From assembly GCA_031414775.1 (NCBI GenBank), contig JANOQI010000026.1:39271-103270 (forward strand): a stretch of DNA of 64,000 nucleotides, given 5' to 3'. Positions 1-63,987 of the stretch are shown one piece after another (positions within the stretch are counted from its first letter, which is position 1; every line of letters begins with the position of its first letter). A program made the translations under genes and the position numbers. The stretch comes from Synechococcales cyanobacterium VAR_4_metabat_354. GTDB lineage: Bacteria > Cyanobacteriota > Cyanobacteriia > Cyanobacteriales > Chamaesiphonaceae. The notes beneath the pieces are model-generated. The model did not search any database. It was given only the letters and a program-made list of their open reading frames with translations, and had not been told where the DNA came from.

Positions 1-41
1 CCAACAGTGGACTCTTTGCTCAAATCGCTGCTGGCGGCTAG
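1..41 (+). CDS. 3' end of an upstream gene (partial), possibly the PsaL-like tail of an IsiA-PsaL fusion
   Basis: Frame from base 3 reads [12 protein letters not shown] then TAG (39-41), 40 nt before the isiA ATG. Only 12 codons are visible. Confidence 0.3.
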
Positions 42-81
42 AGCTGTTAAAAATTTCGATTCTCAACTTGGAGATAAATTT

Positions 82-1167
82 ATGCAAACTTATGACAAAC
101 AGACAATTCGATATGATTGGTGGGCAGGAAACGCCCGTTTCGCAGATTTATCGGGACTGTTTATTGCCGCCCATGTGGGTCAGGCCGCACTCACTGTTTT
201 TTGGGCAGGGGCGATGACTTTGTTTGAACTTTCTCGCTACAACCCCGAGATTGCGATGGGTGAACAAGGCTTAATTTTGCTGCCACATTTGGCTACTTTG
301 GGAATTGGCGTCGGGAAAGGGGGTGTCATTGCTGACACCTATCCGATGTTTGCCGTGGGTGCAGTACATCTGATTTCTTCGGCAGTGCTGGGAGCTGGAG
401 CCTTGTTTCATACCTTTAAAGCACCAGCTAGTCTCGACGAAGCCAAAGGACAGGCGCGCAAATTCCACTTTAACTGGAACGACCACAAACAGTTGGGTTT
501 GATTCTTGGTCATCACCTACTATTTTTAGGAGTCGGGGCTTTAGCGTTAGCTTTCAAAGCCACCACCTTCGGCGGCTTGTACGATCCAGTCATTCATGAT
601 GTGCGAGTAGTTACAGCCCCCACTCTCGATCCGACGGTGATCTTTGGCTACCAAACACACTTTGCCAGTGTTAACAACCTGGAAGATTTGGTGGGTGGAC
701 ATATTTTTGTCGGTGCCATGTTAATTTTGGGTGGTGTTTGGCACATTGTGCGCGAACCTTTGCCCTGGGCAAAAAAGGCATTAATCTTTTCGGGTGAAGC
801 CATCCTTTCTTACTCCTTAGGAGGCATCGCCCTCGCTGCTTTTGTAGCTTCTTACTTCTGTGCCGTCAATACCTTGGCCTATCCCGTAGAATTCTACGGT
901 CCAGTTTTAGATGTCAAGCTGGGCATCACCCCCTATTTCGCCGATACCGTGAAGCTAGCGATCGGACACACGCCCCGTTGTTGGTTAGCCAATGCTCATT
1001 TCTTCCTAGGCTTCTTCTTCTTGCAAGGTCATCTGTGGCACGCTTTGCGCGCGATGGGATTCGACTTTAAGCGTGTCGAAAATGCCATTAATTCGATCGC
1101 TGAACCCATGTCCGAGCCAGTAACTCCGGCTAAACCAACCGCTATAGCTGCTGAAAAGTCAGCATAA
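82..1167 (+). CDS. isiA: Iron-stress chlorophyll-binding protein IsiA (CP43' family)
   Basis: [15 protein letters not shown] start; [31 protein letters not shown] and GHLWHALRA motifs; 6 TM. ATG at 82 follows GGAG; the ORF-track start at 7 is too far upstream. Confidence 0.93.
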
Positions 1168-1228: not shown

Positions 1229-2188
1229 ATGACTATCTCTTTAAATAGATCGATCGCTGATGGTGATTCGCGCCGGTTATGGTTAGTCGGCAATGCCCAG
1301 CTCGTAAATTTTTCGGGCCAACTGCTGGGTGCTCATTTAGCTCATGCTGCTCTCATTGTATTTTGGGCTGGAATCACTACGGTGAGTGAAGTGCTACGCT
1401 ATCAACCAGATGTTCCTTTTACCGAGCAAGGCTTTTTACTATTACCGCACCTAGCGACTTTGGGCTGGGGCGTGGGTAACAACGGTCAAATTCTAGAAAC
1501 CGAGACCTACTTTGCGATCGGGATGATTCATTTAGTTGCTTCTGCCGTGTTAGCCGCTGGGGGTCTGTATCATATAGTGCGCGCTCCTGCTAATTTAGCT
1601 ACTAGTAGTCCTCAGGTTGCCCGCTTTCACTACGAATGGACTGATGCCAAACAACTCGGTCTGATTCTGGGGCATCATCTGATTCTGTTGGGGCTGGGGG
1701 CTTGGTTGTTAGTGCTCAAAGCTACTGACTTTGGCGGTATCTATGATCCAGCCATCCACCAAGTGCGGCTAGTTACTAATCCTACGATTGATCCTAGTAT
1801 TATTTTTGGCTATGTAGTTGGCCTAAACCACGGTGTGTGGAATCTTCAGGGCATGGCCAGCGTCAACAATCTCGAAGATGTCATCGGTGGTCATATCTGG
1901 ATAGCCGGTATTTTAATCCTGGGTGGTACTTGGCATATTATTGTGCCGCCTTTTGCCCTTGTCCGCCGCTGGCTCAGAATTGATGCTGATGCGGTGTTGT
2001 CTTATAGTCTGGCGAGTTTAGCTTTGATGGCTGGGACTTCTAGTGCTTTTATCGGTTTCAATACAACAGTTTTCCCGATCGAGTTTTATGGTGCAGACCG
2101 CACTAGTCTGGCAGCGACTCAGTTTTTCTTAGGGTTAGTGGCATTGATTGGCCACTTATGGCACAGCTATCGTGCCCGTACTAACTAA
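1229..2188 (+). CDS. Second, divergent IsiA/Pcb-family chlorophyll-binding protein
   Basis: [49 protein letters not shown] and GHLWH motifs; very short loop E; GAGG RBS. Confidence 0.9.
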   Translation: MTISLNRSIADGDSRRLWLVGNAQLVNFSGQLLGAHLAHAALIVFWAGITTVSEVLRYQPDVPFTEQGFLLLPHLATLGWGVGNNGQILETETYFAIGMIHLVASAVLAAGGLYHIVRAPANLATSSPQVARFHYEWTDAKQLGLILGHHLILLGLGAWLLVLKATDFGGIYDPAIHQVRLVTNPTIDPSIIFGYVVGLNHGVWNLQGMASVNNLEDVIGGHIWIAGILILGGTWHIIVPPFALVRRWLRIDADAVLSYSLASLALMAGTSSAFIGFNTTVFPIEFYGADRTSLAATQFFLGLVALIGHLWHSYRARTN

Positions 2189-2221: not shown

Positions 2222-2731
2222 ATGTCTAAAATCGGTCTTTTTTATGGTACTCAAACCGGCAAAACAGAAACGATCGCCGAGATGATTCAAGAACAACTGG
2301 GCAAAGGTATCGTAGATCTCTATGATATGTCCCAGGCTGAAACTGATGATTTTGCTGATTACCAGCACCTGATTATTGGTGCCCCTACTTGGAATATTGG
2401 TGAACTATCCAGTGATTGGGATGCCTTTTTCCCAGACTTGGATGAGATTGACTTTAGTGGCAAAACCGTTGCTTACTTTGGGGTCGGTGATCAAATTGGC
2501 TACTCCGATAATTTTTTGGATGCGATCGGGATTCTAGAAGAGAAAATTAGTGCCCTAGGTGGCAAAACAGTCTGCCCCTGGCCAACTGACGGCTATGACT
2601 TTAGTGAATCACGCGGAGTGCGGGACGGTAAATTCATTGGTTTAGCACTGGATGAAGATAACCAAGGAGATTTAACCGAGTCGCGGATTAAAACTTGGGC
2701 AGCACAAGTTAAACAAGCCTTTGGTATCTGA
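2222..2731 (+). CDS. isiB: Flavodoxin
   Basis: IGLFYGTQTGKTE, GAPTWNIGEL and GLALDEDNQ long-chain flavodoxin motifs; AGGAG RBS; lies in the isiA operon. Confidence 0.96.
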   Translation: MSKIGLFYGTQTGKTETIAEMIQEQLGKGIVDLYDMSQAETDDFADYQHLIIGAPTWNIGELSSDWDAFFPDLDEIDFSGKTVAYFGVGDQIGYSDNFLDAIGILEEKISALGGKTVCPWPTDGYDFSESRGVRDGKFIGLALDEDNQGDLTESRIKTWAAQVKQAFGI

Positions 2732-2823: not shown

Positions 2824-3561
2824 ATGAAAAACGATTATCAATTTTTGTGGGTGAATGTTAGCCCCGCCTTTAAAGTATTTCACCGTAATCTTTTCGATTA
2901 TTTAGGTCAGGACTTTGAAATTGGTCTTTGGGAGTATCACCAAACCCTAGATGAATCCAGCACTATGTCGAATGCTGAAGAACTGCTACATGAATTTATC
3001 AGTAACAATAATCAGCCTATTCATCTTATTGGCCATGGGATGAGTGGTAGCTTAGCTTTGCGTTACGCCCGCTCTCATCCAGAGCAGGTAGCATCGCTGA
3101 GTCTGCTGAGTGTACCAGTGCAACCAGCGATCGACTGGCAATCTTATTACTATTATCACCTGCGCTCTTTACCTTACGAACGAGCCTGTATTTTGAAACT
3201 GATGGCTAGTAGTCTGTTTCCGGATGCTTGCTCTGGCTGTATTCAACATGTCGCCAATCGACTAGCCAGAGATTTGGTCGAAGCCCCCTCCGACCACTCT
3301 TTGTGGAAGTTTGATCTATTGCCTCAGGGTGGAGTCAAGATGCCTCTACTATTGGCAGCAGCGGAGGATGATGTCATTGCTAAGGGGGTACTTTTTACGG
3401 ACTGGCTCAGCCATCTCAAGCTAGAAGATGAAATTTGGCACCATCAAACTGGTGGGCATTTCTTTCACCATTGGCATACTGCTGATATTGGCAAGCAAAT
3501 TCAAGAATTTTGGCAGCAGGCTCTCTCTCCACAAAAATCTTTGGTTGCAGCTCTATCATGA
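2824..3561 (+). CDS. isiC: IsiC-like alpha/beta-hydrolase fold protein
   Basis: IHLIGHGMSG elbow-like motif and C-terminal GGHFFH; directly follows isiB as in cyanobacterial isiABC operons. Confidence 0.75.
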   Translation: MKNDYQFLWVNVSPAFKVFHRNLFDYLGQDFEIGLWEYHQTLDESSTMSNAEELLHEFISNNNQPIHLIGHGMSGSLALRYARSHPEQVASLSLLSVPVQPAIDWQSYYYYHLRSLPYERACILKLMASSLFPDACSGCIQHVANRLARDLVEAPSDHSLWKFDLLPQGGVKMPLLLAAAEDDVIAKGVLFTDWLSHLKLEDEIWHHQTGGHFFHHWHTADIGKQIQEFWQQALSPQKSLVAALS

Positions 3562-3866
3562 TTTTACTCTGCTCCGTTATTGCTTGGGGTTTGACAGTAA
3601 GTGGTTTTTTGACAATTTGCTATAACTGGCGAGCTGGGATTAAGCATCTTTATCAACTTCACCGAGTGCCTTGTAGTAAATGCCAATATTTCACAAATAG
3701 CTGCTATCTCAAATGCACAGTTAGTCCTCATCTGGCTTGCACAGAACAGGCGATTGGTTGTCGAGATTTTACCTCCATCACTTCTTTACAACAATCTTCT
3801 ACTTCTAAGCCAACAAAATCTTCTCGATTCAAGTACAACCTAGGTGATTGTCATGAAAACCAATAA
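3558..3866 (+). CDS. Small membrane-anchored Cys-rich protein (Cx2Cx10Cx14C), copy 1
   Basis: ATG overlaps the isiC stop (ATGA 3558-3561). N-terminal hydrophobic helix, then PCSKCQYFTNS..LKCTV.P..A.TE.AI.C.DF. Paralog at 61166-61411. Confidence 0.8.
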   Translation: MILLCSVIAWGLTVSGFLTICYNWRAGIKHLYQLHRVPCSKCQYFTNSCYLKCTVSPHLACTEQAIGCRDFTSITSLQQSSTSKPTKSSRFKYNLGDCHENQ

Positions 3867-4044
3867 TCGACGCTGCCAGTATATTTCTGCACATCAAGTC
3901 AATCGAGTAACTATGATTATTACAGAACAGTGGGAAGAAGTTATGTCAATAGTCCAAAGAAGAGCTGATAAGCACAATTATGAACAACGTATTCTGATGC
4001 GCCAGAATATTCAGAGACACCATCTCCAGAGAGATGCTGCCTAA
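3853..4044 (+). CDS. Small hypothetical protein (63 aa), partner of the Cys-rich protein, copy 1
   Basis: ATG at 3853 after AGGTG; overlaps the previous ORF; ungapped similarity to 60902-61090. Confidence 0.65.
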   Translation: MKTNNRRCQYISAHQVNRVTMIITEQWEEVMSIVQRRADKHNYEQRILMRQNIQRHHLQRDAA

Positions 4045-6501: not shown

Positions 6502-7612
6502 TTAGACCAGTTGGCTATCCTGACGCAGATAAGCTTCGATGAAACTATCCAAATCACCATCCATCACATCACTAACTGCACTGGTTTCCACACTGGTGCG
6601 TAAATCTTTCACCATCTGATACGGCTGAAAAACATAGTTGCGAATCTGGGTGCCCCAGGCTGCTTCCACTATATCGCCCCGAATCTCGGCGATTTCCTTG
6701 GCCTTCTGTTCCTGCGCCACAATCAGCAACTTGGCCTTCAAAATTACCAGCGCTTTCTCCTTATTCTGGAGCTGGCTGCGCTCTTGAGTACAACGCACCG
6801 CAATCCCAGTGGGTTTATGGACAATCCGCACCGCCGTTTCTACTTTGTTAACGTTCTGGCCACCCTTGCCGCCCGCTCTAGTCGTGGTGATTTCCAGATC
6901 AGTATCTGGGATATCTAGACGCACGGTGTTGTCAATTAATGGCATCACTTCGACACCAGCAAAGCTAGTTTGGCGCTTATCATTGGCATTAAAGGGCGAT
7001 ATCCGGACCAGCCGGTGAGTACCTTTTTCGCTTTTTAAGTAGCCATAGGCATAACGACCAATAATCTCGATCGTCACCGACTTTAAGCCAGCCTCTTCGC
7101 CCTCTGAGATTTCATCGATCTGTACTTTGTATTTATGCTGTTCTGCCCACCGCGTATACATCCGCAACAACATTTCTGCCCAATCCTGAGCGTCTGTACC
7201 CCCGGCACCAGCGTTGATTGTTAGTACCGCGCCTTTAGAATCATAAATCCCCGATAACAGCCGTTCTAGTTCCCAGCGATCGAGTTCTACTTTCAGGGTA
7301 TTAAGACTCTGCTGGGCTTCGGTAAACAACGCCGCATCTTCTTCTAACTCCAACATTTCCAGGGCTGCCGCCGCATCGGCCAGACTGCTTTGCCAACTGT
7401 GCAGCTGCTGCAAGTTAGATTTCAGATCATCAAGCTGCTGTAACGTGGTTTGAGCGGTTTCGCGGTTGTCCCAAAAATCGGCCTGAGCAGCAACCTGCTC
7501 CAAGTCTTGAATTTTGGCAGTGAGATTGGGTAGGTCAAAGATAGTCTTGAGTTTTACCCAAGCGATCGCCTAATGTGCCGATGTCTCTTTTGAGATCTAC
7601 TAAATCGATCAT
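6502..7612 (-). CDS. prfB: Peptide chain release factor 2 with programmed +1 frameshift
   Basis: ATG at 7612 gives [25 protein letters not shown], then CTT TGA C at 7540-7534. The +1 frame continues [14 protein letters not shown]... with SPF and GGQ motifs. Confidence 0.96.
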
Positions 7613-8171: not shown

Positions 8172-8918
8172 ATGATGAACATCAATAGTCACAATATAAC
8201 ACCGCGAGTTACAGGGAGACTAATTCCCCATCTGTCTGCGCCGGGTGACGTGCAAATGAAAATCGATCAGTGGTTGCTGCAAGAATACGTGGCGGGTCGA
8301 ATGCCGCCGACACTGCGGTTTTATGATTGGTCGCCAGTGGCTATTTCTCTGGGTTATCATCAGCGCCGCTACCCAGTGGTTTGGGAAAGTTTAAGCTGGC
8401 AAGGGCAACCTGTCGAGCTAGTGCGGCGACCCACGGGCGGCCGAGCCGTGCTGCACCAGGGTGATTTGACCTACAGCATCATCACCAGTGGCCAGGGAAA
8501 AAGACTGGCAATTTACCAGCGGCTCTGCGAGTTTTTAATATTGGGTTGGCGACGACTGGGGCTAGATTTGAGCTATGGCCACCAGGGCAAAGAGTACCGC
8601 GATCAGCCGGATTGCTTTGCAACCGCCACCGGCGCGGATCTGGTGTTGGCTAATGGTTATAAGTTGATCGGTAGTGCTCAACTAATTAGGGATGGAGCAG
8701 TGTTACAGCACGGCTCCATGCGCTTACAGCCCGATGAAGAGTTATTTGAGTTGGTGTTTGGCACCAAGGCACCAATTGCTCCACCGTCATTTAAAGAATA
8801 TGAGCGGGATGCGATCATTCGTGTTTTAGTGCAGGCGGCAACGGATTGTTGGGAGATTAATTGGCAGCTAGAACCCTTGACAGCAGCAGAAATGGCGATC
8901 ATTTTCAGCTGCGATTAG
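8172..8918 (+). CDS. Lipoate-protein ligase A / LipM-like family protein
   Basis: PTLRFYDW, VRRPTGGRAVLH, KLIGSAQ and VLQHGS motifs. Confidence 0.88.
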   Translation: MMNINSHNITPRVTGRLIPHLSAPGDVQMKIDQWLLQEYVAGRMPPTLRFYDWSPVAISLGYHQRRYPVVWESLSWQGQPVELVRRPTGGRAVLHQGDLTYSIITSGQGKRLAIYQRLCEFLILGWRRLGLDLSYGHQGKEYRDQPDCFATATGADLVLANGYKLIGSAQLIRDGAVLQHGSMRLQPDEELFELVFGTKAPIAPPSFKEYERDAIIRVLVQAATDCWEINWQLEPLTAAEMAIIFSCD

Positions 8919-8929
8919 ATGTAGTTCAA

Positions 8930-9166
8930 TTAGTCAGTTTTGTCTTCAGTGTTGTTGATCGCCACTGGTTTATCGGCCACCACAGTTTCAGCAGCATCAA
9001 TTTCTTTCTTGATTTCGTTCTGAAAACTGCTAGAAGCATCTTGGAAGCTTTTCATCGCTTTACCCATACTGCGCCCAATTTCTGGCAGCTTTTTGGGGCC
9101 AAAAATCAAGAGAGCGATCGCGAAGATCACGGCCATTTCTGGTAAACCAATCCCAAAGAAGTTCAT
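8930..9166 (-). CDS. tatA: Twin-arginine translocase TatA/E subunit
   Basis: FGIGLPEMAVI..LLIFGPKKLPEIGRSMGKAMKSFQ. Confidence 0.93.
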   Translation of the reverse strand: MNFFGIGLPEMAVIFAIALLIFGPKKLPEIGRSMGKAMKSFQDASSSFQNEIKKEIDAAETVVADKPVAINNTEDKTD

Positions 9167-9287
9167 AATTATTGCTCAGCTTTAACAGGTCGATAGTTAA
9201 GGCTATTATACGATCGACTGGAATGATTGGTGCTTCCCCAGACTTGGTAGAATTCAAGAAACAGCGCCCCGTAAGCATCCAAAGAAC

Positions 9288-9938
9288 ATGAGCGAAGACG
9301 TCAAAGCCGAAGTGCCAATTATTATTCCCCAGCTAATTGTCGGCTTGGGCAACCCGGGCAGCAAATATGCCCAAACTCGCCATAATGTGGGCTTCGAGGC
9401 GATCGATTACCTAGCCAAACGCTGGCAAATTACCCTCAGCGACCAAAAAAGATTTCAAGGCATTGCTGGCGAAGGTCTCAGTGGCACACAGAAAATTCGG
9501 CTGCTCAAGCCCCAAACTTTCATGAATCTCTCCGGTCAGTCGGTGCGTGCCGTATTGGATTGGTATAAACTTGACCCCACCCAAGTGCTGGTAATTTACG
9601 ATGATTTAGATTTGCCCTTAGGCAAATTGCGGATGCGCCTGGCTGGTTCGGCTGGTGGTCACAACGGCATGAAATCAATTATTAGCCATCTGGGTACTCA
9701 AGCTTTTCCCCGACTGCGGCTAGGCATTGGGAAGAGCCAGGATGAAACTATTGGACATGTGTTGGGTAAGTTTGCGATCGCCGAAGCTCCCATCGTCCGC
9801 GAAGTGTTGGAACTAAGTAGTGATGCAGTCCAACTGGCAATGCGTCAAGGTGTCGAAAAATCAATGAGTCTGTATAACAGCAGATTTGTGGAAGTTCCGG
9901 CTACTATTGACCGAAGTGCTAGTCGTTCCAGTTCCTAG
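9288..9938 (+). CDS. pth: Peptidyl-tRNA hydrolase
   Basis: LIVGLGNPG, TRHNVGF, KPQTFMNLSG and GSAGGHNGMKS motifs. Confidence 0.96.
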   Translation: MSEDVKAEVPIIIPQLIVGLGNPGSKYAQTRHNVGFEAIDYLAKRWQITLSDQKRFQGIAGEGLSGTQKIRLLKPQTFMNLSGQSVRAVLDWYKLDPTQVLVIYDDLDLPLGKLRMRLAGSAGGHNGMKSIISHLGTQAFPRLRLGIGKSQDETIGHVLGKFAIAEAPIVREVLELSSDAVQLAMRQGVEKSMSLYNSRFVEVPATIDRSASRSSS

Positions 9939-26600: not shown

Positions 26601-26762
26601 TGCTCTGTCAAATTCTAGTGGTTAACCGCAGCGCCGTCTTACCTCAGTTTATGACCTGGCAAAAGCCAGGTGGGCGCATTTGGTTTTAGGTGCTAAGTTT
26701 CTGAGTCCTTGCTCAGTTTACCGCAACGAAAACAGCTCAGTTCCCGAATAAATCAAGCAAGA
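26601..26762 (-). ncRNA. ssrS: Probable 6S RNA
   Basis: Ends pair (TGCTT..ATTC.GG.AACTG.GCTGTTTT with AAGACGGC..CGGTT..CC..GAAT..GAGCA). Internal hairpins CTGAG..CTCAG and CCTGGC-TTTT-GCCAGG. AATAAT -10-like box upstream. Resembles cyanobacterial 6S as I recall it; ends approximate. Confidence 0.65.
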
Positions 26763-26817
26763 TCAAAAAACATTATTGGCAGTCACCAACGCCGCAGTTA
26801 AACCACTTTCCCTATTA

Positions 26818-37797: not shown

Positions 37798-37975
37798 GGA
37801 CTTTACCTCTATGGCTAGAATAATAGTGAATTTTTTAGGAATTTAAGGCGGATCTCGTGTTTCACATTCCAGCAATAGGGCGGACTGAGGAGCATGAGGC
37901 AGAGCGATGTACTAATCATGACTTAGGAAGTGTACAATCGACCTTAGCCGTTTGACTGAAAATAACTGAAAGTAA

Positions 37976-38653
37976 ATGTTTACAGGATTGATTCAATCAC
38001 TAGGAGAAATCCGAGCTTTGGCTGATGACCGAGTAGAGATTGTGATTGATGCTAGTCAGGCCAGCGTCATCTTAGCAGATTTGGCAATCGGTGACAGCGT
38101 AGCGGTAAATGGAATATGCTTAACTGCTGAAAGCATTACTAGCAATGGTTTTATAGCTGCTGTCTCGCCAGAAACTTGGCGACGCAGCACACTGGGCTTG
38201 AGCAGCCAGTCTAGCCACCACGTTAATTTAGAAACTTCACTACGGGCGGGGGGCAAAATTGGTGGCCACTTTGTAACTGGCCATGTGGATGGCTGGGGTC
38301 AGCTAGCTACGGTGCAGCAGTCAGCGGCGGCTTGGGAACTGAAGTTTACCTTGCCACCACCCCAATCTTGGCAACAACCGATCAGTAAGTATATTGTAGC
38401 AAAAGGTAGTGTGGCTGTGAATGGGATTAGCTTGACTGTCGCTAACTGTGCGGCGGACTGGTTTACTGTAGCGGTGATCCCACATACTTATAGTGCTACC
38501 AATTTAGCTGACCTCATTGTGGGTGATTTGGTCAACTTGGAAGGGGATATTTTGGGCAAGTATGTCGAACAGCTCTTACGTTATTCTCCTGCTCAGCAGA
38601 CTGTTCAGCCAGATATTACCTTGGACTTTTTAAACACCCATGGTTATAATTAG
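37976..38653 (+). CDS. ribE: Riboflavin synthase alpha chain
   Basis: MFTGLI, GDSVAVNGICLT, GGHFVTGHVDG and KGSVAVNGISLTV motifs. Confidence 0.95.
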   Translation: MFTGLIQSLGEIRALADDRVEIVIDASQASVILADLAIGDSVAVNGICLTAESITSNGFIAAVSPETWRRSTLGLSSQSSHHVNLETSLRAGGKIGGHFVTGHVDGWGQLATVQQSAAAWELKFTLPPPQSWQQPISKYIVAKGSVAVNGISLTVANCAADWFTVAVIPHTYSATNLADLIVGDLVNLEGDILGKYVEQLLRYSPAQQTVQPDITLDFLNTHGYN

Positions 38654-38805
38654 CTATAGTTATAAATGCCTAATAATATTTAACCTTGACCAAAAATAAT
38701 TAATCAAATAATTCATCCCCGATTCAGGATAGCGATTAAGGTTTCTTGGTTATGCATCAACGAAAACGGCTAGACTAAGTAAGCTGTTTTTGACGACCCG
38801 AATTG

Positions 38806-40065
38806 ATGAGTGCAGAAATTATTTGCGTGGGTACCGAACTATTGCTGGGTGACATCCTCAATAGTAATGCTAGGTATTTAGCCCAACAGTTAGCCGACTT
38901 GGGAGTTGCCCACTATCATCAGTCGGTAGTGGGAGATAATCCTGGTCGCATTCAGCAGGTGATCCAAGTGGCGATCAACAGGCAGGCCAAGGTACTAATT
39001 TTTACCGGTGGTTTAGGTCCAACCCCCGATGATCTGACGACAGCGACGATTGCGGAATTTTTTCAGACTTCCTTAGTCGAGCATCCGGCGATTGTGGCCG
39101 ATATTGAGCAAAAATACGCCCAACGGGGACGGGTGATGACTGCCAACAATCGCCGGCAAGCACTCCAGCCCCAAGGAGCCGAGATTTTGCCGAACCCTTT
39201 GGGTACGGCACCTGGGATGATGTGGCAGCCCCAACCCGGCTTGATTATTCTGACTTTCCCTGGTGTACCCCGTGAAATGTACCGGATGTGGCAAGATTCT
39301 GCCGTGCCCTATCTAAAAGCCAATGGCTATGGACAGGAGCAAATTTTTAGTACTAGTTTACGGTTTTGGGGAGTTTCGGAATCAGCTTTGGCTGAAAAGG
39401 TTGATCGGTTTATTCAGATGAGTAATCCGACAGTGGCACCCTATGCGGGCAAAGGTGAAGTGCGCTTGCGAGTAGCCACCAAAGCCGCCACTGCCAGTGC
39501 CGCAGCTCAAATTATTGACCCCATCGCTGCCGCCATTATTGAGTTGGCTGGGGAACATTACTACGGTACCGATACCGATAGTTTAGCCAGTGTGGTTGGC
39601 CAATTGTTACTGACCCAGCAGCAAACAGTCGCCGTAGCTGAATCTTGTACTGGTGGTATGTTAGGCTCCCTGCTGACGGATATTCCGGGTAGCTCGGCTT
39701 ACTTCAAGGGTGGGGTGATTGCCTATGACAATAACGTGAAAGTCAAAGTGTTGGGGATTGAGGCGGAGTTAATTGCCACTCAGGGAGCGGTGAGTTCTAA
39801 GGTTGCTGAGCAAATGGCGATCGGCATCAAAGCCAAAATTGCTACCGATTGGGGCATTGGAATTACTGGGGTGGCGGGGCCAGGGGGTGGTAGTGCAGAT
39901 AAACCGGTGGGCTTGGTTTATATTGGCTTAGCCCGACCAGATGGTGGGGTGGAGTCGATGAAGTATCGGTTGAGTAGTCATTTTGACCGAGAGTTAATTC
40001 GCCAGATGTCGGCACAGCAGGGTTTGGATATGCTGCGGCGCAGGCTTTTGAAAATCTCCGAGTGA
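38806..40065 (+). CDS. cinA: Competence/damage-inducible protein CinA (NMN deamidase fusion)
   Basis: AEIICVGTELLLG, GGLGPTPDDLT, AESCTGG, GAVS and ITGVAGPGGG motifs. Confidence 0.94.
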   Translation: MSAEIICVGTELLLGDILNSNARYLAQQLADLGVAHYHQSVVGDNPGRIQQVIQVAINRQAKVLIFTGGLGPTPDDLTTATIAEFFQTSLVEHPAIVADIEQKYAQRGRVMTANNRRQALQPQGAEILPNPLGTAPGMMWQPQPGLIILTFPGVPREMYRMWQDSAVPYLKANGYGQEQIFSTSLRFWGVSESALAEKVDRFIQMSNPTVAPYAGKGEVRLRVATKAATASAAAQIIDPIAAAIIELAGEHYYGTDTDSLASVVGQLLLTQQQTVAVAESCTGGMLGSLLTDIPGSSAYFKGGVIAYDNNVKVKVLGIEAELIATQGAVSSKVAEQMAIGIKAKIATDWGIGITGVAGPGGGSADKPVGLVYIGLARPDGGVESMKYRLSSHFDRELIRQMSAQQGLDMLRRRLLKISE

Positions 40066-56456: not shown

Positions 56457-57037
56457 AGCAAATCTATTAGATGGTAACCTCAGCCATTTTAGCAGCTTCT
56501 AATCACTCAAAAGACGAAAAAAGGGAGTACAGTTCAAAAAAAAGGATGCCATCGGACAGATTTCCTTCATTCCCGAATTTTCCAGAGCCACAGCATAAGT
56601 AAGATTTTATAACTACTCTTGGTTTTGCTCGAAATTTTTTCTAGGTTCTTCATGTAGCAGGGAGTCATCCCTGCTTGATAAATATTTGAAATTGCTCGTA
56701 CCCTCCCGATTTGATACTTATCAGTTTACCTAGCCTCAAAGCAGGGATCAGTAATAATCATCACCAAGAATATGTTGGGAGTATTGTTATTAAATAGGTT
56801 TGACTGGGTATATTAGGAGTAAAAGACACGAATTTCTGGGAAATCAATGATTTATTACCATAAAGACTAGCCATTTGGTCTTTGTTCACTATAGTTTTGG
56901 GCGAAAAACTGGAAAACCACTGCAAGCATTCCCAAGGTTCAAAGGAGATATTTTAGCACTACCAATGGTTTTCGGTGTAAAAAATCATAAATATCCAAGT
57001 TGTAATTTATTTGGACTATATTCACCAAAAAGAAGAG

Positions 57038-57826
57038 ATGTCTAGCAATATTCAAATCAAGAATACTATAGATCCAAAACTGCCAGCAATCCGAGTCTTG
57101 TTGGCGGAAAGAGGTCCATTAGAGATTGTCAAAGTCAGAATTAGCATGGTTGATAACACCCAAATCATGCTTGGGATAGTGAGTAGCTATGATCAACTAT
57201 TGGAAAGTATTACAAAAGAACAACCGCATTTAGTTATATTGGGAAACATTGATGTTACTGATTACTTCACGATCTGCCAAGGATGCCGTGCAATTTACGA
57301 TAAACTCCTGATCATCCTCCTTTCCAATCAAGAAATAACTAATGATTCTTTTCGAGAAGTTCTGAAAAGCTATGGTGTGATCGATACCATCTCTTCCAAT
57401 GACTTAACAAAGTTAAATGGAATATTTGATCAATTGCTGATGACTAGTCATCAGCAAACTGGTAAAAAGCAACTGCAACCGATCGCTACGGGACAGATGA
57501 TGCTCGTAAGCTTGAATGAAATTATTGCAATTAGCAACAACTATTTTGGTCCTTTAGCACAAGGCAACTACTGGCGCAAAGCTCATGCTCTGGTCATCGA
57601 GCAATTCCCTTTTATCCAAAACTGGGCAGTAGATCACTTTAGTAAAGTTACTTGTCTGGAAAGTATATTGGAACTGGAGTTAACAGATAAGGATATGCAA
57701 TGCTTGCGGATCTGGGTTCAGTTTTTTATTGAAGAATGCGAGCGAATTATTGTTGATTATGGAAAAATTTTGAAAAGTTCTGATTTATCGCTGCCAGCAC
57801 AAGATCTTTTATCAACAACCAACTAA
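57038..57826 (+). CDS. Pseudo-receiver domain fused to an uncharacterised helical domain
   Basis: IRVLLAE..QPHLVILG (Gly at the phospho-Asp position); C-terminal YFGPLAQGNYWRK..WVQFFIEEC; ATG at 57038. Confidence 0.7.
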   Translation: MSSNIQIKNTIDPKLPAIRVLLAERGPLEIVKVRISMVDNTQIMLGIVSSYDQLLESITKEQPHLVILGNIDVTDYFTICQGCRAIYDKLLIILLSNQEITNDSFREVLKSYGVIDTISSNDLTKLNGIFDQLLMTSHQQTGKKQLQPIATGQMMLVSLNEIIAISNNYFGPLAQGNYWRKAHALVIEQFPFIQNWAVDHFSKVTCLESILELELTDKDMQCLRIWVQFFIEECERIIVDYGKILKSSDLSLPAQDLLSTTN

Positions 57827-57831
57827 TTTCT

Positions 57832-58302
57832 ATGACTACCATTACTCTGAGCATTAACGGACAAAAAATCGAGGCTAAGCATAATTCTACGCTGCTTTCC
57901 GTGTTCAAAGAACATGATATTGTAGTAAACCAACTCTGTGGTGGACAAGGCATGTGTGCTTCTTGCCACTTTTTTGTTGTAGATGGCTCACCGGAGTTGA
58001 CTCCACCAACGGTACAAGAAAAAATCACATTGCAGTACACTAAAATTGAGCGGCCTGGGGCACGGCTAGCTTGTCAGACTCGAGTAATTGGAGATGGGGT
58101 TGTCATTGAGTTACCCCAAGGAACATTTGTTGAATCGGAGAAAGACTTAGAGCAGTCAATTGGCAAAAAAGCTAAGGAAACTTTAATCCATCCTATGACC
58201 GGTGAGGTCTTGGTCGAAGCGGGTAAGTTGATTTTGCGCTCGGCGCTCGAAAAAATGAAAGAATCTAGTAATAAATTTGCCGATTTGCTATCAAGAAAAT
58301 AA
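57832..58302 (+). CDS. 2Fe-2S ferredoxin-like protein with C-terminal extension (Slr0148-like)
   Basis: CGGQGMCASCH...RLACQ; tail LIHPMTGEVLVEAGKLI. Confidence 0.88.
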   Translation: MTTITLSINGQKIEAKHNSTLLSVFKEHDIVVNQLCGGQGMCASCHFFVVDGSPELTPPTVQEKITLQYTKIERPGARLACQTRVIGDGVVIELPQGTFVESEKDLEQSIGKKAKETLIHPMTGEVLVEAGKLILRSALEKMKESSNKFADLLSRK

Positions 58303-58427
58303 AAGTGATAGTAATAATGATTTAAATATTGGGATATATAAGGTTAACAAGATATATTCGATCTTCCCAACCAGGGCATTATAGCTGCCATGATTGTAAA
58401 GGTTGATGCTCAGAAAAGAGTTACTTT

Positions 58428-59216
58428 ATGATATCTCAAGATCAAAAACGAATTTTCAAGAATGCGCCCAATCCGATTATCTCTATCAGCGATGTATGTC
58501 ATTACAGTCGTTCTCAATTCTTTCGCTTTGATATGCAAAAGGGAGAGATTTTAGACTATCACCACCAGCGCAATTTACTAGTTGGTGAAAACTTTATTGT
58601 GTCTTTACTAAAGGGACTAGAACATGAAGTTGGCGAAGCCGCAGGCTGGTTGATGTATCAAATAGGTTTTGATTGGGGAAAGCAAGATGCTATCCTCTTT
58701 CAATCCTGGTTTAAGGAATTTTACAACTTGACGTTGGAAACATCTAATCTGGCCTTTGCAATGGAGACATGGTGGTGGCCATATACGGTTCAGGGTTGGG
58801 GAACTTGGACTCCTAACTTGAGCACTAGAGAAAGTGGCTTTTTCTATGTTGACCTATTTGATTCGGCGGTTGCTAAGTCTTTAGGGTACATGGGCAAACC
58901 AGTTTGCCACCTATATGCCGGACTTTTAGCAGGTTTTTTTAGTGCTTCATTTTCTCAAAATCTGTGCAGTACTGAAATCCAATGCTATTCAATGGGCAAT
59001 GATTTTTGTAGGTTTTTGGTTGGTTCTGAAACACGAATTCAAGCCGCTGAGTTTTGGATTTCTTCAGGAGCTAAGGCAAGTGAAATTGCTGAACGGTTTG
59101 ATGCTGAGGAAATTCCGCATGAACCAGAGTTGGGAATTGAAGTTGAGTCAGTAAATGCTAAGACTAATAAAAATGCTCCCGAACCTGAAATATTGATTAA
59201 AACAGGTATAGTATGA
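58428..59216 (+). CDS. V4R domain protein (Slr0144-like)
   Basis: WWWPYTVQGWG, PVCHLYAGLLAGFFS and EIQCYSMGNDFCRF motifs. Confidence 0.88.
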   Translation: MISQDQKRIFKNAPNPIISISDVCHYSRSQFFRFDMQKGEILDYHHQRNLLVGENFIVSLLKGLEHEVGEAAGWLMYQIGFDWGKQDAILFQSWFKEFYNLTLETSNLAFAMETWWWPYTVQGWGTWTPNLSTRESGFFYVDLFDSAVAKSLGYMGKPVCHLYAGLLAGFFSASFSQNLCSTEIQCYSMGNDFCRFLVGSETRIQAAEFWISSGAKASEIAERFDAEEIPHEPELGIEVESVNAKTNKNAPEPEILIKTGIV

Positions 59217-59524
59217 AAAATCGCAGATATAACAAGTTAAGAAGTAATCCATTTATCCGCTTATTTCGGACGATCTATCGATTACTAAAGGTTATATTTA
59301 GACTTCGCAAAAAAAATTCCAAACTAATAAATAACGATCGCATTGATCTTGATATATTAGCCGAGGCTAAAGCATTAAATGAGCGGATAGAGTTAGAGAA
59401 TCGCCTCAAAGAGCAATTCCTCACAGTGGGAGATTTATTAGGACGGGTTAAGTGGCAAACTCCTCAAGAAACAGTTCTAAAAATTAATAGTGTTCCACCA
59501 GAATACGACGTTTCTAGAAACTAA
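59213..59524 (+). CDS. Hypothetical basic protein
   Basis: 103-aa ORF with ATGA overlap, inside the cluster; amphipathic Arg/Lys-rich N-terminus. Confidence 0.6.
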   Translation: MKNRRYNKLRSNPFIRLFRTIYRLLKVIFRLRKKNSKLINNDRIDLDILAEAKALNERIELENRLKEQFLTVGDLLGRVKWQTPQETVLKINSVPPEYDVSRN

Positions 59525-59590
59525 AGTAAATGCCAGAATTCATATAGAGATACTTTATCGAAAGATCTCTAGCAGTTATATTTTATTCAA

Positions 59591-60070
59591 ATGGAGTTGA
59601 AAATGATTACACTTTTGGAAGCACTGGTTGATGGGGCAGATGGGTCTTATGCTGAGCCGCAAGATCTGCGAAAGTTAGAACATGTAATGTTCTCTTGGAA
59701 TGAGCGAAAAGAGGCTTACTTGGCAGTACAATCACAAGAGAAAGTGATTATTGATGGAGCGATCAAATTAATTATAGGCAGTCAAGATTTTCAGAAACAT
59801 GCGATGAATGAATTAGGGATTGATCGCTGTCGTCGTGATATGACTTTGACCTTAAGATCTTACGCCTTGGCGATGCTGTTGCAAGACGAGGAGATGCTAA
59901 AAGATCGATTTATTTACTGGCAGAAAAATATTCTTCAAGCTATGCATTTGTCACAGTATCAAGGGGTAAAGTTTGTATTTGAATCTATCTGTATCGAGCT
60001 ACCAAAAGAACAGGCAAATTTATTAAAGCCTTACTTTAAAATCGGTCAAGATATGATCATGTCGAATTAA
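59591..60070 (+). CDS. Phycobiliprotein-like (globin-fold) protein (Slr0149-like)
   Basis: ADGSYA...L (cf. AD..GRYL) and CRRDMTLTLRSYALAML (cf. CxRD..LRY). Confidence 0.8.
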   Translation: MELKMITLLEALVDGADGSYAEPQDLRKLEHVMFSWNERKEAYLAVQSQEKVIIDGAIKLIIGSQDFQKHAMNELGIDRCRRDMTLTLRSYALAMLLQDEEMLKDRFIYWQKNILQAMHLSQYQGVKFVFESICIELPKEQANLLKPYFKIGQDMIMSN

Positions 60071-60128
60071 ATCTAACTGCTAGTTGCTAATAGCTTTGAC
60101 TTTATTTTAATCAGATAATATATTCTAC

Positions 60129-60788
60129 ATGACTAAATCACTTGCGATCGAATCTATCATCCCTATTCCAGCTAATTGTTTTACGCCTAAAGGCTATGTT
60201 AAATCCCATCCGGCTTCGGGGTTGTTATCGAGTCGCTATGGAAATCGCTTAATTGCGGTGCCTGAATTGCTGTTAAGAATCATCCCCAAAACCTTACGTG
60301 CAGAAGCTGGTGAAGCATCTTATCTCGCTCTTTATACGTTTGGTTATAGCTGGGGCAAGACTTTTTGTGGGCGAATGGTGCAAGATATTGTCCAATATTA
60401 TCGCCAGCCCATCTTAGATACGCTCTCAGCTGATTTTTGGGTTTATATCCAAGAAGCTTGGGCTGTTCATGGCTTAGGTAAACTATCGATCGATTTTAGT
60501 TTGGCTGAGCAGGGACTCCTCGTTGTGACCATTGTAAATTCTGGCATTAGCGGTGGTATGACAGTTGAAGAATCTTTAACCTCCCGCTCATTTAGTCTGG
60601 AAGCTGGTTTCCTCGCTGGTTGGTTTTCTACTCTTACCGACAACAACCTACGATCTTGCGCCATTGACTGGAGTGAGGCTCCCACATCACTTCAGTTTTT
60701 AGTCGGCGCCATCCCTCATATTGAATTGATCGAACGATCCCATCTCCAACATGGAATGCTGGCTCCAGACCAACTGCACTTATTGTAA
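60129..60788 (+). CDS. Degenerate V4R domain protein (Slr0147-like)
   Basis: GLLSSRYGNRLIAVPE, WGKTF, WAVHGLG and EAGFLAGWFS motifs; C-terminal Cys ligands not retained. Confidence 0.75.
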   Translation: MTKSLAIESIIPIPANCFTPKGYVKSHPASGLLSSRYGNRLIAVPELLLRIIPKTLRAEAGEASYLALYTFGYSWGKTFCGRMVQDIVQYYRQPILDTLSADFWVYIQEAWAVHGLGKLSIDFSLAEQGLLVVTIVNSGISGGMTVEESLTSRSFSLEAGFLAGWFSTLTDNNLRSCAIDWSEAPTSLQFLVGAIPHIELIERSHLQHGMLAPDQLHLL

Positions 60789-60901
60789 ATTTAAGGCGTT
60801 AAACTTCAGATTAACTTGCTCTGAACCATGAAAAAAGGGGTATGTAATGACTAGATATACATACCCCAACTAACGATTGTATTGATGATAGAGCGGAGAT
60901 T

Positions 60902-61165: not shown

Positions 61166-61411
61166 CTAAACCATTGTAACATTCGATGAGACAAAATCAT
61201 GACAGTTGATCGCTAATTCAGTAGTAGCTAGTTGGGGATTTACTGTACATTTGACATAGTAGCTGTTGGTAAAGTACTGACAACGGCTACAGGGGATTTG
61301 ATGTAGTCTGCGGATGTTGTCAATACCTCTCTTCCCTATTTGATATAGAGTAATCCCAGCGATCAAAGTAAGACCCCAAGCCAAAAACCGACAGATATAA
61401 ATAATGATCAC
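61166..61411 (-). CDS. Small membrane-anchored Cys-rich protein (Cx2Cx10Cx14C), copy 2
   Basis: GTG start overlaps the acnB TGA (GTGA); AWGLT helix; PCSRCQYFTNSYYVKCTVNP..A.TE.AINC.DF. Confidence 0.8.
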   Translation of the reverse strand: MIIIYICRFLAWGLTLIAGITLYQIGKRGIDNIRRLHQIPCSRCQYFTNSYYVKCTVNPQLATTELAINCHDFVSSNVTMV

Positions 61412-63987
61412 AAGCTTAATTCCGCTACGGCTGTTTCGGACACAATTCGACCCTCATTTTCAAATCCAGCAATTTGGTCGAAGTTTAAATAACGGTAGAG
61501 GCTAGCCGCAAAAGGGTCAATTTTTTTGGTGACTACTTCTAAATACTCATTGGCAGTGGGTATTTTGCCCAGCATCGAACAAACGGCAGCTAGCTCTGCC
61601 GAACCCAAGTAGACTTGTGCTCCTTTCCCTAGCCGGTTGTTAAAGTTGCGAGTAGAAGTAGAAAACACCGTAGCATTGTCGGCGACTCGGGCTTGGTTAC
61701 CCATGCAAAGACTGCATCCCGGCATTTCGGTACGGGCACCGGCCATCCCAAAAATGCCATAAATGCCTTCTTCTTTGAGTTGGTATTCATCCATGCGGGT
61801 GGGGGGACAGATCCACAGGCGGGTATTGACGGGTGGCTCACCTTCTAAGACCTTGGCGGTGGCGCGATAGTGGCCAATATTGGTCATGCAAGAACCAATA
61901 AACACCTCGTCAATCTGATCGCCTGCTACTTCACTCAACAATTTGACGTTATCAGGATCATTCGGAGCAGCCACAATCGGCTCTTTGATGTCATTGAGGT
62001 TAATTTCAATGATCTCGGCATATTCGGCATCAGGATCAGCCGACAACAGTACCGGATTGGCCAACCATTCTTCCATTTGGGCGACCCGGCGCAAAATGGT
62101 GCGGGCATCGGTATATCCTCTGGCTACCATATTTTTCAAGAGGGCTACGTTCGATCGAATGTATTCAATAACGGTGGCTTCGCTGAGCTTAATGGTACAG
62201 CCGGCACAGGAACGCTCGGCACTGGCATCAGTCAACTCAAAGGCTTGCTCCACCTTCAGATCGGGCAGCCCTTCTATTTCTAAGATGCGGCCAGAGAAAA
62301 CATTTTGTTTATTTTCTTGAGCAACAGTCAGTAAGCCTTTTTGGATGGCGACATAAGGAATAGCGTTGACCACATCCCGCAAGGTTACACCCGGTTGCAG
62401 CTTACCGGTAAACCGAACCAGGACTGATTCTGGCATGTCGAGGGGCATGGCACCCAGGGCAGCAGCAAAGGCCACTAGCCCAGAACCAGCTGGGAAAGAG
62501 ATACCCAGCGGAAAGCGGGTGTGCGAATCGCCACCAGTACCTACGGTATCGGGCAATAGCATTCGGTTGAGCCAAGAGTGGATAATGCCATCACCGGGAC
62601 GTAATGCTACTCCCCCCCGTTGGGCGAAGAAGTCGGGCAGGTCGTGGTGGGTTTTAATATCGACGGGCTTGGGATAAGCGGAGGTATGGCAAAAGCTCTG
62701 CATCACCAAGTCGGCGCTAAAGCCCAGACAAGCTAATTCTTTTAGTTCATCGCGGGTCATGGGTCCAGTCGTGTCTTGAGAACCGACAGTGGTCATTAAT
62801 GGTTCACAGGCGATGCCTGGTCTGATGCCGGGTAAGCCACAGGCTTTGCCCACCATTTTCTGAGCCAGAGTATAGCCTTTGTTGCTAGCTACGGGCGGCT
62901 GAGGCCGAATAAATAGTTCGCTGGCCAGTAAGCCCTGGGCTTGCCTAGTTTTATCGGTTAAGGCGCGGCCAATCAGCAGGGGAATCCGGCCACCTGCTCG
63001 GACTTCATCCAAAATGGTCTCAGGCTTCAGTTCAAAGGTAGTAATTAATTGGTCTTGTTCGTTGGTAATTTGACCTTTATAGGTATGAATTTGAATCACC
63101 ATGCCAGTTTCTAGTTGGGTGACATCGCATTCGATCGGCAGCATTCCCGAATCTTCGGCAGTATTGAAAAAGATCGGGGCAATTTTACCACCCAGTAAAT
63201 AACCAGCGGTGCGTTTGTTGGGAACGCAGGGAATATCGAGGCCAGTGTGCCACAGCACTGAGTTGATGGCTGACTTGCGGGAAGAACCAGTGCCCACCAC
63301 ATCGCCCACATATACAAGGGGATGACCTAGGGCTTTGAGTTGTTCGATCGTTTCCAAGCTACCCGGTTGCCGGGTTTCGAGCATGGCCAAAGCATGGAGC
63401 GGAATATCGGGACGGGTGGTGGCGTGAGTGGCTGGGGATAAATCGTCGGTGTTGGTTTCGCCCGCAACTTTAAAGACGGTCACTGTCACCATTGCTGGCA
63501 CAGTCGGCTTGTCGGTAAACCAAACACCTGCTGCCCAGGCATCAATTACTTGCTTAGCATACTGGTTAGTTTGCGACAAATCCCAGACATCATTAAAAGC
63601 GTCGTAGACTAGAGTGATTTTACTCAGGGCTTGGACTGCCGCTGTGGCCAAGGCAGTATCACTAGATTTTAGGGTATCAATTAGAGCTTGGACGTTGTAG
63701 CCACCGAGCATGGTGCCGAGGAGTTCGATCGATTGCAAGGGACTGATCAATGGACTATGGACATCACCTTTGATAATTGCGGCCAGGAAACTAGCTTTAA
63801 CGTAGGCTGCCGGATCTACACCAGGTGGAACTCGATCGCGCAATAATGCAATCAGGTTAGCCTCTTCACCTGCTGGTGGCTGCTGTAATAGTTCGCAGAG
63901 GGCACTGGTTTGTTCGGCATCGAGCGGTAATGGGGGAATGCCCAATGCGGCTCGATCGGCTGTATGCTGGCGATATGCTTCTAACAT
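61408..63987 (-). CDS. acnB: Aconitate hydratase B
   Basis: GETNTDDLSP, GSSRKSA, GSQDTTGPMTRDE, FIGSCMTN, GCSLCMGNQ and STSTRNF motifs. Confidence 0.98.
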   Translation of the reverse strand: MLEAYRQHTADRAALGIPPLPLDAEQTSALCELLQQPPAGEEANLIALLRDRVPPGVDPAAYVKASFLAAIIKGDVHSPLISPLQSIELLGTMLGGYNVQALIDTLKSSDTALATAAVQALSKITLVYDAFNDVWDLSQTNQYAKQVIDAWAAGVWFTDKPTVPAMVTVTVFKVAGETNTDDLSPATHATTRPDIPLHALAMLETRQPGSLETIEQLKALGHPLVYVGDVVGTGSSRKSAINSVLWHTGLDIPCVPNKRTAGYLLGGKIAPIFFNTAEDSGMLPIECDVTQLETGMVIQIHTYKGQITNEQDQLITTFELKPETILDEVRAGGRIPLLIGRALTDKTRQAQGLLASELFIRPQPPVASNKGYTLAQKMVGKACGLPGIRPGIACEPLMTTVGSQDTTGPMTRDELKELACLGFSADLVMQSFCHTSAYPKPVDIKTHHDLPDFFAQRGGVALRPGDGIIHSWLNRMLLPDTVGTGGDSHTRFPLGISFPAGSGLVAFAAALGAMPLDMPESVLVRFTGKLQPGVTLRDVVNAIPYVAIQKGLLTVAQENKQNVFSGRILEIEGLPDLKVEQAFELTDASAERSCAGCTIKLSEATVIEYIRSNVALLKNMVARGYTDARTILRRVAQMEEWLANPVLLSADPDAEYAEIIEINLNDIKEPIVAAPNDPDNVKLLSEVAGDQIDEVFIGSCMTNIGHYRATAKVLEGEPPVNTRLWICPPTRMDEYQLKEEGIYGIFGMAGARTEMPGCSLCMGNQARVADNATVFSTSTRNFNNRLGKGAQVYLGSAELAAVCSMLGKIPTANEYLEVVTKKIDPFAASLYRYLNFDQIAGFENEGRIVSETAVAELSL

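Follow-up and report, generated by a model that had tools for sequence, protein, structure and literature searches.

Two small-protein families at the tail of a cyanobacterial isi operon are probably separable accessories of the metal-starvation response

Across large parts of the ocean and of fresh water, iron is what limits the growth of cyanobacteria, and the isi operon is the best-studied cyanobacterial iron response. Small proteins are already known from this operon. IsiE of Synechocystis PCC 6803 is a cysteine-rich protein of 59 amino acids with CXCC/CXXC motifs, which is encoded between isiA and isiB in the Fur-controlled isi operon, was purified from the soluble fraction and is proposed to bind iron (PMC8634477). 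IsiD (DUF2555) is a small protein encoded after isiC in Synechocystis. A review of isiA names only isiB, isiC and isiD (PMC8635728). In Trichodesmium erythraeum IMS101 the gene Tery_1664 has a log2 change of -7.29 between high and low iron, about 150-fold higher at low iron; it is annotated as hypothetical and the authors term its cluster uncharacterized (PMC12090762). A more distant parallel is offered by FbpA, FbpB and FbpC of Bacillus subtilis, small, basic, Fur-regulated proteins of the iron-sparing response (PMC7430163). Here we describe two further families of microproteins, a four-cysteine membrane protein (the Cys protein) and a basic peptide (the partner), found as two pairs in a stretch of 64,000 nucleotides (the window) from a cyanobacterium of the family Chamaesiphonaceae.

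The copy 1 pair closes an isiA-isiA-isiA-isiB-isiC operon, and the copy 2 pair lies behind acnB (Table 1). As had been noticed at first reading, the start of Cys1 overlaps the isiC stop by ATGA; for Cys2 and the acnB stop the overlap is GTGA. Partner 1 begins within the final 14 nt of Cys1, and partner 2 starts 75 nt past Cys2 and is followed by a hairpin and a T run. With the window isiB as query a matching gene was found in 63 of 80 isiC loci (the best 80 of 243 confirmed loci, a sample rich in related Oscillatoriales), and the window isiC shares 40% identity with the gene that follows isiB in an IsiE-bearing operon, that of a relative, G209. The first gene of the isi operon, just 5' of the window (contig 37881-39311; L001:13882-15301), encodes an IsiA-family protein fused to a PsaL domain. 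Immediately 5' of the operon a cobalamin riboswitch precedes a DUF1636 gene (L001:12939-13545). Rfam matches to the antisense RNA IsrR lie on the minus strand at 475-652 and 1637-1814 of the window, one per isiA-family gene, and may merely reflect the similarity of the isiA coding sequences. A 6S RNA is found at 26619-26803.

Table 1. Features of the isi-operon tail and the acnB tail in the window
Feature	Position	Strand	Basis
isiA-family chlorophyll antenna gene, second of three	7..1167	+	TIGR03041 474 bits
third isiA-family gene	1229..2188	+	TIGR03041 318 bits (below cut-off 335); PF00421
isiB, flavodoxin	2222..2731	+	ORF; named by sequence and position
isiC, alpha/beta hydrolase fold	2824..3561	+	Abhydrolase matches below cut-off
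four-cysteine membrane microprotein copy 1 (Cys1), 102 aa	3558..3866	+	N-terminal hydrophobic helix, C-x2-C-x10-C-x14-C; dN/dS 0.08-0.13
partner peptide copy 1, 63 aa, basic, amphipathic core	3853..4044	+	dN/dS 0.28-0.50
acnB, aconitase B, directly 5' of copy 2	61408..63987	-	TIGR00117 1549 bits
four-cysteine membrane microprotein copy 2 (Cys2), 81 aa	61166..61411	-	dN/dS 0.10-0.20
partner peptide copy 2, 62 aa	60902..61090	-	dN/dS 0.07-0.16
predicted intrinsic terminator ending acnB-Cys2-partner2	60831..60867	-	10-bp G+C-rich stem, then six T

The two pairs had been proposed in a first-pass annotation made from the letters of the window, and all four ORFs were confirmed at their coordinates. 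Its hand counts were reproduced exactly, with 37 of 71 identical positions between the Cys proteins and 11 of 54 between the partners. Both similarities went beyond what shuffling produced: the local score of the Cys pair (219) was reached by 0 of 20000 shuffles and that of the partner pair (58) by 1 of 20000, and the four Cys-versus-partner cross-comparisons all scored at chance level. The partners had been said to align without gaps; the count holds, but the best local alignment has one 3-residue gap. The shared membrane helix was recovered as an N-terminal hydrophobic stretch with Kyte-Doolittle 19-mer maxima of 2.08 and 2.06. Codon comparisons with relatives, which give point values and were saturated for two pairs, returned dN/dS of at most 0.5 in all computable pairs for both ORFs; three other partner groups gave 0.06-0.41, and partner 1 is the most relaxed group (0.28-0.50). 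Both ORF families are protein-coding and under purifying selection. A non-coding RNA at the place of the partner was likewise considered and rejected, as dN/dS favours protein; the sole Rfam match on the partner loci was a cobalamin riboswitch, in 15 loci.

The Cys protein shares with IsiE the membership of an iron-induced isi operon, judging from gene order and from an orthologue that is induced at low iron. Unlike IsiE it has a hydrophobic helix, the spacing C-x2-C-x10-C-x14-C and a place beside isiC, Cys1 following that gene instead of lying between isiA and isiB. No sequence similarity between the two was found (hhalign probability 0.5%, 6 columns), and both are present as separate genes in 6 of the 80 isiC loci (best 80 of 243), so that the link to IsiE drawn at first reading does not amount to identity. 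The published IsiE sequence, as given in the supplement of PMC8634477, was found again at L150:3029-3208. A tblastn search of the host genome returned no IsiE, and a profile search placed the Cys family in none of five genomes of the genus g10, which includes the IsiE-bearing G209. The genomes sampled from the genus of Synechocystis PCC 6803 yielded neither the Cys family nor the partner. The orthologue is Tery_1664, a member of the same family in the same place after isiC (PMC12090762), whose coordinates match the Cys ORF of locus L175. Unlike Cys1 it is followed by a Crp/Fnr gene and not by the partner, and no partner was found in the Trichodesmium IMS101 genome. That the Cys family is switched on when iron falls is thus shown in a relative.

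The profile search detected the Cys family in 278 of the 301 genomes sampled from the order. Three of the cysteines are invariant and the fourth is kept in more than 90% of 133 aligned rows, and the spacing of 10 and 14 residues between them in 118 of 121 homologues. Within the best 80 of the 243 isiC loci a Cys gene lies at most 2.5 kb from isiC in 34 and at most 300 nt from it in 18. Many other members adjoin non-iron genes, as named from the neighbours' sequences. No model of Pfam, NCBIfam or PHROGs matched either microprotein family above cut-off, and PDB sequence searches gave nothing significant for either. In the ESM Atlas the Cys protein matched only unnamed cyanobacterial clusters and the partner had no usable match. 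The one library match that recurred for the Cys family was DUF6464 (PF20065), also a cyanobacterial cysteine domain and itself of unknown function; it matched 65 of 133 family members weakly at E up to 5 (best E 1e-5), which may reflect a distant relationship. With 13.2 and 15.6 bits the window copies stayed below its cut-off of 25 and were not assigned to it. A literature search under the name DUF6464 found no paper.

A single metal centre at the membrane is predicted for the Cys protein from its motif. Its four cysteines resemble those of HiPIP proteins, with C-x2-C...C...C, similar spacing and aromatic residues after the second and the last cysteine. The HiPIP motif has a Gly-Trp ahead of the last cysteine that the Cys protein lacks, and no HiPIP match to the family was found in Pfam or among PDB sequences. 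The TCR Fe-S protein was set aside, as its motif differs and it is absent from cyanobacteria (PMC7848650). In the predicted structure residues 2-37 form one long helix at pLDDT above 90 and the cysteine domain has pLDDT 44-59; because of this low confidence the fold searches barely probed that domain, Foldseek returning no match and VIA-align matches to the helix only (best Z 3.7).

The partner family consists of basic peptides of 42-70 aa. A search of 1.84 billion representatives gave 67 matches, two of them repeat proteins. The alignment (66 rows) combined fifty-eight of these with 8 locus copies; excluded were the 2 repeat proteins, 3 near-duplicate sequences and 4 forms that were extended or interrupted. 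Its core comprises a basic N-terminal part and about 25 further residues, with conserved Trp (66/66), Glu (63/66), a second Trp (56/66) and Arg (65/66) and no conserved Cys or His in the 66 rows; the median pI is 10.0 and 52 of 66 lie above 9.5. Searches for the partner succeeded in 28 of those 301 genomes of the order, in 12/12 of the host genus and 10/27 of the sister genus, and in 3 of 401 genomes drawn across the phylum; by its named homologues, the host's family would consist of relatives of Chamaesiphon, and the partners further out appear to belong to Myxosarcina and Iningainema. No fused form was seen among 8000 longer candidates, which is weak evidence, and a 415-aa cluster member (P0221) showed no visible similarity to the peptide. 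The partner is not IsiD (DUF2555), with which it shares no similarity and which is acidic; the host genome has a separate DUF2555 gene on contig C54.

The pair had been read as one duplicated module in which a metal-binding membrane protein and a soluble partner act together. Seventy-five distinct partner loci, including one doubtful short match (G558) and one interrupted gene (G424), bear on such a complex, which would form in trans where the genes lie apart. In the host's family a Cys gene adjoins the partner in 30 of 44 loci (19/33 in the host genus, 11/11 in the sister genus), with overlaps or short gaps and in L046 in flipped order; both genes were copied behind acnB in the host, G001 and G007, and the genomes with the Cys family include nearly all the partner-bearing ones listed. 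Beyond the family adjacency falls to 0 of 31 partner loci, with a Cys gene or isiC within 2.5 kb in 6 of them. Some 250 of the sampled genomes carry the Cys family while no partner turned up in them, and the same is true of Trichodesmium. The Cys gene is moreover broken in four loci and missing in three beside an intact partner. In 4 of the 19 adjacent loci of the host genus it is interrupted by stops or frameshifts while the frame of the partner stays open, and a clade of seven loci upstream of or near a cation-efflux gene has one intact Cys gene, three broken ones and three loci without any, DNA remnants being left in two of these last three. In three lineages (L046; L020 and L024; L200) the partner directly follows isiC with no Cys gene between, and its link across families is with isiC, not with the Cys gene. 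The host genome itself has four copies of each family, two of each without the other: the lone partners follow an Hsp20 gene on the contig of the window and head a CobW_C and metallophosphoesterase operon on contig C11. The two lone Cys-family copies, on contig C46, are divergent and lie among small genes of another kind (L003:4201-4554, 6790-7056). The two genes have thus been gained and lost apart, so that neither depends on having the other beside it. The data do not support an obligate two-protein module, and a complex of the two proteins seems unlikely to us. We favour, at a probability of roughly 0.55, the reading that the two are separable accessories of the metal-starvation response and not one fixed pair.

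Separability of the genes is compatible with their having travelled together once. In the Cys tree the window copies belong to a single clade at genus level (support 88), nested in the isiC-linked clade of the family (92), which fits the earlier proposal of a duplication as a unit; the partner tree, on 37 of 75 rows, is too weak either way on a common origin of the window partners (p-AU 0.51). The cassette was probably copied as a unit from the isi operon to behind acnB in one branch of the genus. Of the neighbourhoods first suggested for the families, that of isiC was seen for the Cys family in 34 of the 80 isiC loci and that of acnB in only 3 genomes. It might be argued that the acnB-linked copy was recruited as an aconitase-specific helper that repairs or protects the cluster, and so differs from the isi copy: it overlaps acnB at its start and shares its terminator, and partner 2 is under stronger constraint (dN/dS 0.07-0.16) than partner 1 (0.28-0.50). 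AcnSP, which is said to be a small aconitase regulator, would be a precedent. We regard this as very unlikely, given the three genomes involved and given that the same partner clade is found away from acnB in G003 and in G009, in the latter behind its own Fur-type box. As for a similarity of the partner to the N terminus of aconitase B in the manner of AcnSP, the partner profile gave 5 host matches at E<=1, none of them in acnB. Converging on partner 2 is an operon (57011-60788) with genes for a 2Fe-2S ferredoxin, a V4R protein, a phycobilisome-type globin and unnamed proteins, which we take to resemble the Synechocystis cluster slr0144-slr0152.

Other genes recur 3' of the isi cassette. A ferritin-like gene and a thioredoxin-type 2Fe-2S gene with a Fur-type box are found on the contig of the window (contig 8668-9742), and in the relatives G003 and G007 such a pair lies directly 3' of isiC-Cys-partner. 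In one branch of the genus two membrane proteins (209 and about 151 aa), neither of them matched by Pfam, take that place (L031, 261-1378; L013, L032, L034, L037, L038 and L053).

The partner's own promoters point to metal control, which is where the suggested iron-starvation link is borne out for this family; for the Cys family it rests on the isiC neighbourhood and the induction of Tery_1664. A generic Fur-family pattern (at most 2 mismatches) occurred in 21 of 42 stand-alone partner loci and in 35 of 600 background regions. A Fur-type consensus taken from published Synechocystis sites, with at most 3 mismatches and 40 dinucleotide shuffles per locus, gave boxes in 16 of the 42 (0.35 expected), and a Zur-type pattern gave boxes in 5 (0.05 expected), all in a CobW-linked clade; such locus counts overstate independence because the loci are kin. 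CobW-type genes belong to the Zur regulon of Anabaena (PMC6103462). In the host a perfect Zur-type palindrome lies 44 nt 5' of the 46-aa paralogue that heads the CobW_C and metallophosphoesterase operon (C11:92743 onward; L002:4744-6188), divergent from a flavin oxidoreductase gene and kept in several genomes of the genus. Six Fur-box copies are divergent from a class I aldolase gene and upstream of a gene of the Tery_1686 family, and both the aldolase and Tery_1686 are induced at low iron in Trichodesmium (PMC12090762). The Tery_1686-family protein 3' of the partner is unnamed and has 143 aa (L109:3119-3550; also L069, L106, L110, L111 and L112). In the host isi operon (copy 1) the box has 4 mismatches, above the threshold, and 3 in the relative G003. 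The promoter of copy 2 lies off the host contig, and no Fur-type box was found upstream of acnB in the relative G001. Fourteen of the 42 loci, including an Hsp20-linked clade, have neither box nor sodB. From the boxes we infer that the partner would be switched on when iron falls.

Varied neighbours of this kind, including Hsp20, a cation-efflux gene and lpdA, and the many Cys-family copies in non-iron contexts could also mean that both genes are passengers on strong stress promoters with no iron-specific job. Purifying selection acts on both, and Fur-type boxes are kept in at least 6 different neighbourhoods, including some with a divergent GH9 glycosidase gene, which makes this extremely improbable.

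In seven stand-alone loci the partner directly follows sodB. In Synechocystis IsaR1 targets both sodB and acnB, and the two are repressed when iron is low (PMC8136909), so that partner or Cys genes placed behind them may be expressed under the reverse condition. By analogy with FbpABC (PMC7430163), which the partner resembles in kind only in being small, basic (median pI 10.0) and, judging from its boxes, under Fur control, its placement behind two IsaR1 targets might suggest an RNA chaperone. We think this quite improbable: what is invariant is not a basic patch but Trp, Glu and hydrophobic residues, Pfam and NCBIfam scans gave no FbpABC family match, and a weak single-sequence query found no IsaR1 near any partner locus or in the host genome. 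An IsaR1-like site in G543 is about 72 kb from the partner gene.

Under the reading of two separable accessories, the tail of the isi operon would carry two separate microprotein genes, both conserved and coding, that are turned on as iron falls, the Cys family by the data from a relative and the partner by its boxes. The Cys protein, likely Fur-derepressed and membrane-anchored, might hold an Fe-S cluster or a single Fe or Zn at the membrane and could buffer or relay iron during the remodelling of photosystem I with IsiA and flavodoxin. The basic, helical peptide likely acts by binding another protein, and its Trp-x-Glu-x-Trp...Arg face could dock on a protein of the iron-sparing response; by gene position IsiC, SodB and AcnB would be the first candidates. 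Behind acnB, in one branch of the genus, the pair would be a later copy. One may speculate further that the partner belongs to a new class of plug-in Fur-family effector peptides, a 25-residue helix re-wired many times to Fur (iron) and Zur (zinc) starvation promoters and to the sodB, acnB and isiC gene ends. Such a helix would act directly on iron enzymes at the protein level, inactivating or protecting them, and the near-universal Cys protein would be an unrecognised cyanobacterial membrane Fe-S or iron sensor read by the peptide. This stronger version strikes us as rather unlikely.

Searches of the open literature brought up no paper that describes either family. Both families are unnamed and fit the class of small Fur-regulated proteins of the isi response, whose genes keep being overlooked; two families are added here for testing. 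Most genomes of the order have the Cys family, and Tery_1664 is among the most iron-responsive genes of Trichodesmium, so that culturable strains can be used now, and the regulon of the partner can be read from its promoters. The iron-sparing response is known mainly from Fur and small RNAs. If either protein does bind an iron enzyme or carry a cluster, it would add a protein-level layer to that response.
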